A program made the position numbers and the translations under genes. Below the pieces are notes generated by a model. The model was given only the letters and a program-made list of their open reading frames with translations. It did not search any database and had not been told where the DNA came from. This document shows positions 29,631 through 40,310 of a stretch of DNA of 64,000 bases, piece by piece. Position 1 is the stretch's first letter. Each line of letters starts with the position of its first letter. Origin of the DNA: Naegleria gruberi (Eukaryota); the NCBI GenBank assembly GCA_000004985.1, contig GG738896.1. The stretch is one strand, 5' to 3'.

Positions 29631-30484
29631 ATGTCTTTTTATACAAACAGTATGGCCATGACCCAAATGACTCAAGGAGCTGGTGCCACACAATCAACAC
29701 AAGTTACCAGTGAAGTTGAATCACCACCACAATCTGGAAGTAACTCCAAGAAGAGAGCAGGACGTAGGAAAATTAACATTGAATTCATTCAAGATAAATC
29801 TCGTAGACACATTACTTTCTCCAAGAGAAAGGCAGGTATCATGAAGAAGGCTTACGAACTTTCTACATTGACTGGTACTCAAGTTCTGCTGCTAGGTAAG
29901 TATTTACTGTAATCTACATCCTTATTTAAAATCCAAATTTAGTTGCTTCTGAAACTGGTCACGTTTACACATTTGCTACTCCAAAGCTTCAACCTCTCAT
30001 CACTCAAACTGAAGGTAAAAACCTTATCCAACAATGTCTCAATGCCCCAGAAGCTTCCCAACAACAAATGATGGGAGGTGGTGATGAAGACGAAGATGAA
30101 GAAGGTGACGAAGATGAATATCAAGGAATGATGGGAAATCCACAAATGATGGGCAACCCTCAAATGATGGGAAATCCTCAAGGAATGGGTAATCCACAAA
30201 TGATGAGTCAACACAGTGGTCAACCAATGATGAATCAACAAAACCAACACATGGCTGGAGGTATGCCTCAAACTCAACACATGGGACAAGGCTCTCAACA
30301 GGTTCCTCAAAATCAAAATCAATACTATAACCAACAATCCCAAGCTCAACAATCCACTTTGCCACCACAACGTATGATGAACCAACAAGCCAATTCAAAT
30401 AATGGTATGGGACATTTTCAAGTTCCAATGAACAACCAATCTCAAGCCCAAGGTGGTGGTCATCAACCTCATTATAACTTCTAA
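29631..30484 (+). CDS. SRF: SRF-type MADS-box transcription factor (SRF/Mcm1 family) with a Gln/Met-rich C-terminal region, 2 exons
   Basis: The MADS/SAM domain is GRRKINIEFIQDKSRRHITFSKRKAGIMKKAYELSTLTGTQVLLLVASETGHVYTFATPKLQPLITQTEGKNLIQQCLNAPE, nearly identical to animal SRF. Exon 1 is 29631-29895 (GTAAGT donor), the intron is 47 nt, and exon 2 is 29943-30484. The total is 807 nt. MMGNPQ repeats follow. A possible extra 5' coding exon at ~29375-29463 is described in the findings. Confidence 0.8.
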
Positions 30485-30624: not shown

Positions 30625-32491
30625 ATGGGACAGTTAGAGAGCAAAAGTCTTTCTGATAATTCAGACCACAATAACTTTCAAATGCTTCAACAAAGACAGC
30701 AAAGAAGAGGTTCAAATGTTGGTCAAATTCATGCAACAAGTCCTCCAACTTCAACAACAACTTTCGGAGCAAATTTACTTTTCAGTAGTAGAAGTGATGA
30801 TTTATTTGATGAGTTGGAAGATGATGATTCAAAATCATCTCAATCTTTCCAAACCTCTACACAATTTCTCTCACTCTTGGGTCATAACATTTTGGATCAG
30901 GCAAAAAAAGTTAATGACCTTCATACAACACAAGTACAATCAATTCCAATTTATGGAAATAATAGAAAGGATAGTGTTGATCTTTCAAAGGCTCCAAAGT
31001 TAGTTCTTGTCGGTACTGGTAGTTCAGGTTTGTTTTAAATTCTTTTTAACATTTCTTCTTATTGGAATAATTTCGTTTTTTATATTCGAATAATATTAGG
31101 AAAGACATCACTTTCAAAGTTATTGAAGATACATTCATCTGATTATTCAATCACTAATTTTGATATTAAGAATTGGAGAAAGATTCTCGTAAAGAATATT
31201 TTCCAAGGTTTGTTTTAATTATAACTGATTATTCGAAACCTGACTAGCATTCCGTGTTCTTTTTGATGTTAAGAATAACCTATTTCCAAATGTGCCGTAT
31301 CTGAAAAAAGAATCAGAAGAATTTAAAACTAAATTCTCTCAAATTCCTTCAGATAGTATTGACAATATTCTTGGAGATACCACTTTTTTGAGTGATGAAA
31401 TTTGTGAAAGATTGGTTGATTTTTGGATGGATGAACCAATTATTCAAATGTGTTACTTTTTTGCAAGTATTGCTTACAAATTTATTGAAGGATATGGAGA
31501 TTATTCTAGAAATAGAGCTGAGAAATCAGTTTATATTCGTCACTTGAATCTTGAAAATTTACCAACTCTCATTGATCAATTGGAAGATGTTTTGAGTTAT
31601 GAAACTGAAGGAGATGATTTACAGTCAAAGTTTTCAAGTGCCATTAAGGATGATTCACACATTGTAACTGAGCTCATTGTTAGTACCTATGTAAAAACAA
31701 CTGGTATTATTGAAATTCCAGTTAAATTTGGTGATAACAACCTGATTGGGTTGTATGACACTGGTGGTCAGGTAAGAATTCAATTTAATGAAATATTCTA
31801 ATATTAATTAATATCATTACAGAGAAATGAAAGAAAAAAGTGGAAAAATATCATGAATGATAACTCTCAAACACTCTCTGGAGTTTTGTTCCTTGTTCCT
31901 CTCTCTGAGTATAATCAAATTTGCTATGAAGATGATTCAATTAATAGAACTATTGAATCTTTGAATTTATTCTCAGAACTTGTAAATAGAAATACTTTTG
32001 GATCACTTCCATTCTTTTTGATTTTCACTAAAAAGTTGGTCATGGAGGAAAAGCTCAAATTATACGATTTGACCTACGTCCCATTCAAAACAGAACTTCC
32101 ACAGGATTTAAAAGTTGAATTGAAACTGAATGAAGAAAATAAGAAGGATTTATTGGTTAACATTTTGAAAATGAAAAATAGTCAAATTGATAATCTCACA
32201 CCTAGAGAAATTCAATTGATTGATAGATTTTCATCTGATACACGTTATTCACCATCTCAATTATTGAAAATCATTGGAGGTGATAAGACTATTGAAAGCT
32301 CCTCAACTGTGAAACATTCCGAATTTGTAAATAAGAATATTGAATTCTTTAAGGAACAATTTTTCAATGTGATTCAAGATCCAGAAAGAAAGGAACAAGT
32401 TATTCGTGATCATCAAATTATTGATGTTAAAGATTTTGATCATACCATCCAATCCATGCATTCCATTTTCAAAAGTATTTCAAATCACTAA
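30625..32491 (+). CDS. Divergent heterotrimeric-G-protein alpha-subunit-like protein (probable pseudo-GTPase), 4 exons, ~567 aa
   Basis: Exons 30625-31027, 31100-31207, 31248-31771, 31823-32491; introns of 72, 40 and 51 nt. The total is 1704 nt, divisible by 3. It starts MGQLESK (a myristoylation-type start). The P-loop is GTGSSGKTSLSKLLKIH (compare GAGESGKSTIVKQMKIIH). Switch I reads ..IVSTYVKTTGI, so the catalytic Arg is absent. Switch II is DTGGQRNERKKW. The G4 motif NKKD is replaced by FTKKL, and the G5 motif TCATDT by SSDTRY. A ~130-aa C-terminal extension follows. Confidence 0.7.
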
Positions 32492-33002
32492 TTTATTGAG
32501 ATTCATTTATCACTCAAATATTTACCAAATACAAGTGCAAATAATATAATAGAGGATATATAAATCACAACTATATATCTCAATATTAGTAGAATTGAAA
32601 AGAAGGTTGTTTTATCCAATAATAAAACTTGTTCATGTAAAATATTTAAATTTAATCCCCAAATAATTAAATCAAAACAAGAATTTAATATTAATACAAA
32701 AATTAGATAGATATTCATTTTACGACACGATTTACTCATCATCATTGATCCGAATATAAAAGAAGCGAGTATTAAATAGTAGGAAATTAAAAAGGTTGTC
32801 TCTACATCATTTGTAAAATGTATCCAATTTACTTGATGTAATATTTGATCCTTGATTGCAATCCTCAAACTTTTAAAAAATACAAGAATGGTATCATTGT
32901 ACAGTGATGACATTTTTTTTAAATATATAATTAAATTTAAATTCATTACAAAATAATATTAATTATTAATATTGTTGATATTTAAAAAGAATTTAAAAAA
33001 AA

Positions 33003-38711: not shown

Positions 38712-38968
38712 ATAGTTAGTTACTACTCTAACCTTTAATAGCAAACATGTTCAATAATATTGTATTAATATTAAGAATAATTAAAAAATATTTTAAATTG
38801 TATTCGGAATTGAAAAACAATGAAGGTTACCTCCCTCTCGATGATCAGGTACCACAACTCCTATTAGAAATTAAATTAGAGGGGTTCCATTTCCCCTCTC
38901 TATTTGTGTTGTTTTGCCAACAGGTAAAAACGATCAAAACAAATTACAGATATTATTATTTAAAAAAA

Positions 38969-40087
38969 ATGTGTGAGTATTCCGATGATCGACTCGTAGA
39001 TATTATCAATCTTGAAATTAAATTACAAAAGGAATGGTATAGTGATACGATAGAGGGTGATATTCGTTTAGAAATTAAAGAAAATTGTAATCAAGTTATT
39101 CGTATTAAAGATATTACTCTCTTTTTGCAGGGATTAGAAAAATTAGAGTATCAAGTGGAGGGTCCGAACCGATCTTTGGCTTGGAAATCTGATGAAAAAA
39201 AGGTACTACAAAGTGAGGTACCGATCGCTGGAGATGGGAAATTAACAAAAGGTCCTCATGTTTATTCTTTTTCAGAAAGATTACCAACCGATATTCCTGG
39301 ATCATTCTTTGAGGAAACCACTTATCTGGGAAAACAGATCAAGGCTCAGATATCTTACTTTGCATCATGTGTTGTTGAACTAAGGGTGGGAAATGAAAAA
39401 GAGTCTCAACATGTTACAATTCACAAACAATTTGAAATTTTTGAAAAATTAGGTGATAGAATGGCTAACAATTTGTTTGCAAGCAGAAATAATCAATCAT
39501 GTGGATTATTGTGGAAAATATCATCGAGAAGAAATATTTACTGTCGAAGAGACAAATGCCAATTTTATTCAGAAGTATTGAACGAAGGCATCTCTTCTGT
39601 ATCATTTATTACTGTCAGATTGCTGCAGATTTTAAAGCTTAACATGGAGAAACAAAATACATCAGAGAATATTATGTTAGAGGTCTATAAAAAGACCTTT
39701 AATGGTATCCTGCCAAAATGTAAAGATTTGAGAAATATCACATTTGATTTACATCCAGATCTTGTTGATTATTTCCTCTATCCACAAACAACTTATGGAA
39801 GTCTTATCAGAGTAGAGTACATGCTCCAATTTTCACTAGATAATTTGATTGAGATCAATATTCCAATAGAGGTTTTATTCAAGCAAGACATTCCAGTAAG
39901 ACCTTTATCTAGAAACACAATATCATTGACTGATCATGAAAAGTCCAATAGAAGAAAATCAAAGAGCTACTACGGAGAGCTTGAAGATTATGAGGAATCT
40001 GTCGTGTTAAATGATCCAAAAGATCAAGATAATTATCACGAAGTAATTTCATTAGAGAAAAATACTGGCTGTTGTACTATTCAATAG
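38969..40087 (+). CDS. Arrestin-domain-containing protein (arrestin N and C domains)
   Basis: Arrestin-like strands appear: ..ITLFLQGLEKLEYQVEG..KGPHVYSFSERLPTDIPGSFFEETTYLGKQIKAQISYFASCVVEL.. and ..YMLQFSLDNLIEINIPIEVLF. The probable start is MCEYSDD; the track ORF 38747..40087 extends upstream into AT-rich sequence. Confidence 0.6.
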   Translation: MCEYSDDRLVDIINLEIKLQKEWYSDTIEGDIRLEIKENCNQVIRIKDITLFLQGLEKLEYQVEGPNRSLAWKSDEKKVLQSEVPIAGDGKLTKGPHVYSFSERLPTDIPGSFFEETTYLGKQIKAQISYFASCVVELRVGNEKESQHVTIHKQFEIFEKLGDRMANNLFASRNNQSCGLLWKISSRRNIYCRRDKCQFYSEVLNEGISSVSFITVRLLQILKLNMEKQNTSENIMLEVYKKTFNGILPKCKDLRNITFDLHPDLVDYFLYPQTTYGSLIRVEYMLQFSLDNLIEINIPIEVLFKQDIPVRPLSRNTISLTDHEKSNRRKSKSYYGELEDYEESVVLNDPKDQDNYHEVISLEKNTGCCTIQ

Positions 40088-40237: not shown

Positions 40238-40310
40238 GCCGACATAGCTCAGTTGGGAGAGCGTAAGACTGAAGATCTTAAGGTCCCTGGTTCGATCCCT
40301 GGTGTCGGCA
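40238..40310 (+). tRNA. tRNA-Phe (anticodon GAA), 73 nt, no encoded CCA
   Basis: GCCGACA-TA-GCTC-AGTTGGGA-GAGC-G-TAAGA-CTGAAGA-TCTTA-AGGTC-CCTGG-TTCGATC-CCTGG-TGTCGGC-A. The acceptor, D and anticodon stems pair perfectly. The anticodon loop CUGAAGA gives GAA. The sequence is close to other eukaryotic tRNA-Phe, with one T-T mismatch in the T-stem. It is followed by a T5 Pol III terminator. Confidence 0.85.

Follow-up and report, generated by a model that had tools for sequence, protein, structure and literature searches.

An atypical G-alpha subunit gene of Naegleria gruberi with changed guanine-recognition and arginine-finger positions

Can a G protein alpha subunit (G-alpha) keep a function when both its guanine-recognition residues and its arginine finger are gone? 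The question is raised by a gene on the plus strand of a 64,000-nucleotide (nt) stretch of Naegleria gruberi DNA (contig GG738896.1, assembly GCA_000004985.1), which is called the window here. A first-pass annotation, made from the letters alone, had described it as a four-exon G-alpha-like gene lacking the NKxD guanine-specificity motif and the catalytic arginine of switch I. We find that it is a real, conserved Naegleria G-alpha subunit gene. Judged from its motifs and by analogy, the best reading is that it may encode a functional, atypical, membrane-anchored and non-cycling G-alpha comparable with the plant XLGs, and to this reading we give about an even chance.

G-alpha identity and motif state

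Is the protein a G-alpha at all? The Pfam G-alpha family PF00503, with which an alignment had been proposed, matches residues 108-455 at E=1.5e-49 (169 bits, with a cut-off of 48.8), and a phmmer search against PDB chains retrieves G-alpha o/i/q at E ~1e-25. An AlphaFold2 model was made from 60 homologues. Its core has a predicted local distance difference test (pLDDT) score above 90, and Foldseek gives template modelling scores, normalised to the solved chain, of 0.71-0.86 to G-alpha chains, and of up to 0.86 to Gi1, Gq, G13 and transducin. Pfam, the predicted model and Foldseek all point to a GTPase domain of the Ras type that is interrupted, between G1 and switch I, by an all-helical domain. 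The G-alpha topology that had been read from the sequence is thus confirmed. The gene and the motif positions needed below are listed here.

30625..32491, plus strand: whole gene of the atypical G-alpha, four exons, 567 residues; the locus of N. gruberi XP_002672578.1 / EFC39834.1 / D2VTC0
30625-30645, plus strand: MGQLESK myristoylation-type start; M1, G2, Q3, E5, S6 and K7 are invariant in the clade
31682-31705, plus strand: switch I, S316-TYVKTTG323, with the Tyr318 codon (31688-31690) in the arginine-finger position
32027..32038, plus strand: G4 position, T414-K-K-L417, in the place of NKxD; the specificity Asp is gone
32420..32431, plus strand: G5 position, I545-D546-V547-K548, where other G-alphas have T-C-A-T; all clade members share Asp546 and have Val/Ile/Leu for the Ala

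Which elements are kept and which are lost? The phmmer and hhalign alignments are gapless and of high confidence around switch I, switch II and G4. In the P-loop, GAGESGKS of Gi1 corresponds to G130-TGSSGKT137, so the GTGSSGKT of the first-pass annotation stands; intron 1 splits it. The full GxxxxGK[ST] pattern is found only with the four-exon gene model, the public model being without the Lys and the Thr. Switch II, DVGGQRSERKKW in Gi1 and D341-TGGQRNERKKW352 here, is wholly kept with its catalytic Gln345; it too was correctly recognised and is split by an intron, the third. The Mg-binding Thr321 of switch I is also kept, the MGxxxS start is real and reads MGQLES, and DTGGQRNERKKW is retained alongside the P-loop, the Mg-binding Thr and the MGQxESK signal.

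The losses are of another kind. LRTRVKTTG of Gi1 becomes V-S316-T-Y318-VKTTG, with Arg176 changed to Ser316 and Arg178 to Tyr318. The RxxTxG pattern with its intrinsic arginine finger (Gi1 Arg178) is therefore absent, and the loss read earlier from STYVKTTG holds, because the gapless alignment sets Tyr318 on Arg178. Glu43 of the P-loop is replaced by Ser133. At G4, NKKD of Gi1 is paired without gaps with T414-K-K-L417 (F413-TKKL417 with the preceding Phe), which upholds the reported change of NKKD to TKKL, and the guanine-specificity motif is missing. At G5 the (T)CA(T) motif is missing as well, since I545-D-V-K548 corresponds to T324-C325-A326-T327 of Gi1. The receptor-coupling tail of helix alpha5 is incomplete: the last residue of the helix (550-567) corresponds to residue 346 of the 354 in Gi1. 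Thus the phosphate and Mg ligands and the full switch II surface are all conserved, while the base-specific contacts, both switch I arginines, the P-loop Glu partner and the receptor tail are all changed or missing.

Could mis-joined exons have hidden an NKxD or an arginine? This explanation, named in the first-pass annotation among those that would overturn its claim, is excluded. The losses of the arginine finger and of the NKxD Asp are no splicing artefact, because both sites are exon-internal and the same changes recur in intronless orthologues.

The C-terminal half

Two earlier statements on the C-terminal half have to be withdrawn. It had been said that TCATDT is replaced by SSDTRY and that the protein carries a C-terminal extension of about 130 residues. 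SSDTRY (482-487) lies inside an insert, G5 is I545-D546-V547-K548, and the protein ends within alpha5, 8 residues before the canonical C-terminus. The extra length comes from an N-terminal region of about 115 residues, a longer helical domain and the insert of about 70 residues (433-505). The N-terminal 115 residues are of low complexity and disordered, and contain no Pfam domain.

32084..32302, plus strand: insert specific to the clade (residues 433-505), separating alphaG from alpha4; four short helices come after an LPxDLK motif, pLDDT ~90
32435..32488, plus strand: helix alpha5, residues 550-567, ending at the equivalent of Gi1 Asn346; the last 8 tail residues are missing

The placement of G5 is based on three lines of evidence. 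In the AlphaFold2 secondary structure, alpha4 covers 507-526, beta6 is short (543-544) and alpha5 covers 550-566. The Pfam match of an orthologous fragment, P0061, runs to profile position 327 of 333. Lastly, when the clade and its F-box-bearing relatives are combined in one profile, hhalign pairs residues 514-562 with Gi1 296-341 at E=1.1e-4; with the six clade sequences alone, the alignment of the G5 region is not significant. A MAFFT variant in which the TCAT loop is deleted was dropped in favour of IDVK on the same three lines.

Gene model

The gene runs on the plus strand from an ATG at 30625 to a TAA at 32489-32491, and its spliced coding sequence of 1704 nt encodes 567 residues. The exons and introns are as follows.

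30625..31027, plus strand: exon 1; MGQLESK start, disordered low-complexity stretch, STQFLSLLGHNIL helix, beta1 and the 5' part of the P-loop (GTGSSG)
31028..31099, plus strand: intron 1, 72 nt, GTTTGT..TAG; interrupts the P-loop between Gly135 and Lys136; junction colinear with orthologues
31100..31207, plus strand: exon 2; Lys136-Thr137 of the P-loop and helix alpha1; absent from the public 496-residue model
31208..31247, plus strand: intron 2, 40 nt, GTTTGT..TAG; junction colinear with orthologues
31248..31771, plus strand: exon 3; helical domain, switch I and the beginning of switch II (DTGGQ)
31772..31822, plus strand: intron 3, 51 nt, GTAAGA..CAG; interrupts switch II after Gln345; junction colinear with orthologues
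31823..32491, plus strand: exon 4; remainder of switch II (RNERKKW), remainder of the Ras-like domain, insert, alpha4-beta6-alpha5 and stop

The conserved STQFLSLLGHNIL helix of exon 1 covers residues 78-98. A cluster look-up showed that the same locus is publicly annotated (XP_002672578.1 / EFC39834.1 / D2VTC0) as 'G(o) subunit alpha' with 496 residues. The two models are identical save for 71 residues skipped in the public one, namely exon 2 together with the 5' end of exon 3 (window 31027-31353), with the P-loop Lys-Thr and helix alpha1; there, exon 1 is spliced straight to a downstream acceptor. Then which model is better? The orthologues are colinear across all three exon junctions and through the skipped residues, the N. 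fowleri gene is intronless, and the protein identity of exon 2 to the N. fowleri and N. lovaniensis genes is 62-65%. By these sequence comparisons, the four-exon model of 567 residues is better than the reference annotation, and the public model is mis-spliced. The four exons and the introns of 72, 40 and 51 nt proposed earlier are hence accepted, as GT..AG sites, open reading frame (ORF) and orthologue colinearity agree. Automated surveys would misjudge the protein from a public model without the P-loop lysine.

It is also seen that GTTTGT, not GTAAGT, opens two of the three introns (31028-31033 and 31208-31213), and that introns of 40-72 nt are very short.

Orthologues and selection

Are the unusual motifs a peculiarity of one gene? 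The best homologues of the 567-residue protein are Naegleria proteins, and four relatives can be compared with it over the whole motif set.

P0001, N. lovaniensis: 46% identity to the window protein
P0002, N. fowleri, 611 residues: 45% identity to the window protein
P0003, a more distant relative from a Logan assembly: 39% identity to the window protein
P0004, N. lovaniensis paralogue: 39% identity to the window protein

All four have MGQxESK, G[TC]G[GS]SGK[ST], [SA]-Y-[IVM]-KTTGI and DTGGQRNER[KR]KW. A check of the orthologues for the same substitutions had been recommended, and they are present in P0001, P0002 and P0003 and in the paralogue P0004. The G4 sequences of the clade, each after a Phe, are TKRN, TKRN, TKKN, TKRK and TKKL, and the finger position is Tyr in all. 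An apparent Arg in P0003 (row 'LITRIKTTG') is an hmmalign artefact, as the contiguous sequence is LILNSYIKTTG. At G5 the clade has a hydrophobic residue, Asp and a hydrophobic residue, with Asp546 invariant; the degeneration of the Ala to Val/Ile/Leu would strengthen the case for a remodelled guanine pocket. Some 100 columns show no variation, among them the lipidation signal, G130, G132, S134, G135, K136, K320, T321, T322, G323, D341-W352 and D546.

On both flanks of the gene, gene order agrees with that of N. fowleri and N. lovaniensis (synteny), therefore the genes of these two species are positional orthologues. Between them, the ratio of nonsynonymous to synonymous substitution rates (dN/dS) is 0.27 overall and falls to 0.22 within the core of the G domain. 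Neighbouring genes of the same species pair have values of 0.04-0.29. Thus the gene is under purifying selection, which is somewhat relaxed. N. fowleri G-alpha6, for which no GTP activation was found (PMC9283941), is unlikely as an orthologue: it was cloned as residues 11-383 and is GDP-AlF4-responsive, as against the 611 residues of P0002.

The copy number differs among the species. In N. lovaniensis, P0001 and P0004 are tandem neighbours (locus L002, 4001-5823 and 5974-7673). The second copy in N. fowleri is a frame-disrupted remnant (locus L003, 7019-7410) that corresponds to residues 371-516. At the G-alpha locus of N. gruberi there is no second copy, and tblastn finds none inside the 64,000-nt window.

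The wider heterolobosean family

How old are these changes? A profile search of 1.84 billion representative proteins returned only the full-length members of the clade and three fragments, and then the score dropped sharply to other G-alphas. The next-best matches, heterolobosean G-alphas of N. lovaniensis, N. gruberi, Willaertia magna and metagenomes, have the Tyr finger, DTGGQ, CYEDD and FTK/FNK in common with the clade, and the signature SSY[IV]KTTG / DTGGQ / CYEDD / F[TN]K is present in the window protein. The clade of the window protein is small and centred on Naegleria, and it forms part of a larger set of heterolobosean G-alphas with a Tyr finger. In a census of 206 G-alpha-like sequences, substitutions of the Arg finger are fairly common, while loss of the G4 Asp is almost confined to the clade. 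Since heterolobosean relatives with the G4 Asp carry the Tyr too, the alignments indicate that the change of Arg to Tyr is old and compatible with an otherwise canonical pocket; the traits specific to the clade, on the same evidence, are the losses of the G4 Asp and the G5 Ala.

In the profile search, the relatives that come closest without belonging to the clade are G-alphas with an F-box, such as N. lovaniensis C9374_002917 (P0209), W. magna KAL9656181.1 and KAL9652580.1, and P0069. They resemble the window protein in the site of their insertion, in a motif of the LPxDLK type and in the alpha4-beta6-alpha5 pattern. Unlike it, they hold the G4 Asp (NKKD, NKRD, TKDD or TKAD). The G5 of F-box-bearing relatives is TSA-type in P0209 and P0079, TSP in P0069 and CTV in P0092. 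Their F-box, between alphaG and alpha4, is detectable by Pfam, whereas the insert of the window protein has no F-box similarity. The same-site F-box had given the idea that the insert 433-505 is a degenerate F-box, which was rejected for want of support: Pfam finds no F-box in five relatives (E<=5) or in the window protein (E<=1), and hhalign of the clade inserts with the F-box segments gives a probability of 0.15%.

The group of F-box G-alphas comprises P0005, P0069, P0079, P0092 and P0209 from Naegleria, W. magna and metagenomes, and most have the Tyr finger. N. lovaniensis C9374_002917, with 1068 residues, has a long C-terminal region besides the F-box. The insertion suggests, from its domain content, a G-alpha wired into a ubiquitin ligase of the Skp1-cullin-F-box (SCF) type. 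A literature search for a Naegleria G-alpha with an F-box found nothing relevant.

Possible function and rival explanations

What might such a protein do? A pseudo-GTPase or a G-alpha of altered nucleotide specificity had been suggested in the first-pass annotation. The behaviour of known mutants gives a guide. Arginine-finger mutants (Gs R201, Gi1 R178) lose fast GTP hydrolysis, NKxD Asp mutants (Ras D119N, Go D273N) lose guanine preference, and Gi1 A326S and Ras A146T/V release nucleotide faster. In addition, the Glu-Arg pair has been implicated in the control of exchange (Bosch et al., PMC9283941). Given these mutants and the loss of the base, finger, Glu and tail elements, the protein would bind guanine weakly, discriminate poorly between bases and hydrolyse at a negligible intrinsic rate, while it may still hold a triphosphate with Mg. 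It would be lipid-anchored at the membrane through its N-terminal myristoylation-type signal and would not run a receptor-driven GDP/GTP cycle, having no drive from G-protein-coupled receptors. It might instead act as an adaptor, either constitutively loaded with a nucleoside triphosphate (NTP) or independent of nucleotide exchange, and might use its canonical switch II face to contact effectors, RGS proteins or G-beta-gamma in the manner of XLGs. As to G-beta-gamma and guanine binding, what the sequence offers is conservation of the switch II contact residues.

Several points weigh against a non-cycling adaptor. Invariant phosphate and Mg ligands together with a catalytic Gln would be expected of a working NTPase switch, not of a nucleotide-independent scaffold. 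Thr as the first G4 residue is found in normal GTPases, as in TKLD of Rac1. P0011 and P0015, G-alphas whose NKKD is intact, likewise have an Asp at the Cys position of G5 ('TDAT'), so that the base pocket may have been remodelled rather than destroyed. The AlphaFold2 alignment contains canonical G-alphas, and the model is biased towards the canonical fold. More generally, a P-loop Lys/Thr, a switch I Thr, a DxxGQ and a switch II that are so strictly conserved argue against a protein that is simply dead and free of nucleotide.

The perfect conservation of the residues that bind phosphate leaves room for two rivals. In the first, the protein is a genuine GTP-binding switch whose base pocket has been rebuilt. 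Guanine would be recognised jointly by Thr414-Lys415 (a Rac-like TKx), by Lys548 as the counterpart of the lysine in the SAK motif of Ras, and by Asp546 in place of the lost NKxD Asp; hydrolysis would rely on Gln345 and an arginine supplied in trans by a GTPase-activating protein, in the style of small GTPases. In its favour, no variation is seen in the P-loop, the switch I Thr, DxxGQ or switch II, and Asp546 is invariant in the clade precisely where the G4 Asp has been lost; the equivalent Ser in G5 of Ras touches the NKxD Asp. Further, many protist G-alphas with NKxD and a TSA-type G5, such as P0209, P0079 and P0104, have the Tyr finger as well, so that Tyr alone is no sign of a dead enzyme. 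Against it, the residue at the former Asp position varies freely in the clade (N, N, N, K, L), and the G5 Ala has given way to beta-branched or bulky residues, which weaken nucleotide retention in Gi1 and Ras. We regard this explanation as rather unlikely. Less probable still is a G-alpha of switched or relaxed specificity that would take ATP, xanthosine triphosphate (XTP) or any NTP, akin to the change of NKxD to NxxE in the ATP-preferring YchF/OLA1 or to engineered XTP-specific G proteins with Asp changed to Asn. Four sequences of the clade show exactly this change of Asp to Asn, with TKRN or TKKN (P0001, P0002, P0003 and, as a fragment, P0061), and it turns Ras, EF-Tu and Go towards xanthine nucleotides; all base-specific contacts are changed around intact phosphate and Mg ligands. 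However, N. gruberi has Leu there and the paralogue Lys, so that no single new specificity residue is conserved, XTP is scarce as a cellular nucleotide, and no positive adenine determinant was identified.

Then may the gene simply be decaying, or be an artefact of gene prediction without function? Identity to the orthologues is no higher than 42-46%, dN/dS falls among the more relaxed values of the neighbourhood, N. fowleri has only a decayed remnant of the tandem paralogue, and the public gene model is mis-spliced. All of this would suit a pseudogene, yet full-length ORFs with kept synteny in at least 4 species, a dN/dS of 0.22-0.27, far under 1, about 100 invariant columns including the lipidation signal, and canonical introns with exon junctions colinear with the orthologues make it very improbable. 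There is a bolder possibility as well: the clade might be the first natural G-alpha lineage with changed base specificity, either using ATP or XTP or accepting any base, or with its guanine Asp moved from G4 to G5 (Asp546). The chance of this seems small. If true, such a lineage would work without an intrinsic arginine finger and without receptor coupling.

Genomic neighbourhood

On the minus strand, a convergent hydrophobic ORF of 147 residues (32503-32946) ends 12 nt from the G-alpha stop codon; it has 64-70% protein identity at the syntenic site in N. fowleri and N. lovaniensis and no Pfam match. Upstream on the plus strand lies the 3' end of a gene (30068-30484) with a low-complexity tail rich in Met/Gln/Asn/Pro and with MMGNPQ repeats; this gene is syntenic in the same two species. 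About 6 kb downstream of the G-alpha gene, 38747-40087 on the plus strand encodes an arrestin-domain protein (Arrestin_N E=4e-6, Arrestin_C E=1.3e-4); its closeness is probably a coincidence. A tRNA-Phe (GAA) at 40238-40310, plus strand, is the sole tRNA found in the window.

Comparison with known systems

How new is such a gene? Public databases already contain it, with a name that misleads and a model that is faulty, and atypical G-alphas are already known, for example in plants. Deviation of the catalytic motifs in some Naegleria G-alphas has been mentioned in a review (PMC8584482) that cites Anantharaman et al. 2011 and gives 44 G-alphas for N. gruberi; the Naegleria repertoire is among the largest known. 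For N. fowleri, in which G-protein signalling has been explored as a drug target, 13 G-alphas are listed, and a clade of the present kind is absent from the main-text discussion of that study (PMC9283941). A literature search for the accession numbers of the locus found no paper that mentions them.

Compared with the canonical G-alphas human Gi1, Gq and Go and N. fowleri G-alpha7 (PDB 6NE6), the window protein is alike in its Ras-like and helical domains, P-loop, KTTG, DxGGQRxERKKW and MGxxxS start, with template modelling scores up to 0.86. It differs in having Tyr for the Arg finger, Ser for the second switch I Arg and for the P-loop Glu, TKKL, IDVK, the alphaG/alpha4 insert of about 70 residues, the disordered N-terminus of about 115 residues and a tail without its last 8 residues. 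GTPase-deficient small GTPases and pseudoGTPases such as Rnd, RhoH and CENP-M offer another comparison: they too have a GTPase fold with substituted catalytic or nucleotide-binding residues, and they function independently of the GTPase cycle, as is predicted here from the motifs. They are small GTPases or isolated G domains, however, and the window protein is a G-alpha.

The best functional analogy would be the plant XLGs. XLG1-3 and the window protein are all derived from G-alphas and have an N-terminal extension and deviant nucleotide motifs. XLGs bind very little GTP, and their interactions with G-beta-gamma and RGS proteins do not depend on nucleotide (PMC8584482). The differences are also clear. 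XLGs are plant-specific and the present clade is heterolobosean, which means an independent origin. The N-terminal domain of XLGs is Cys-rich and bears a nuclear localisation signal, whereas that of the window protein is disordered, of low complexity and without a Pfam domain; the window protein also has a myristoylation-type start, unlike XLGs. Nucleotide motifs are weakly conserved overall in XLGs, whereas only the base-recognition and Arg-finger elements are lost here. This unusually clean split, between retained phosphate and switch machinery and lost base, finger and tail elements, is the main value of the gene. The clade may serve as a natural experiment that parts 'nucleotide loading' from 'GDP/GTP cycling', and as an independent parallel to the plant XLGs.

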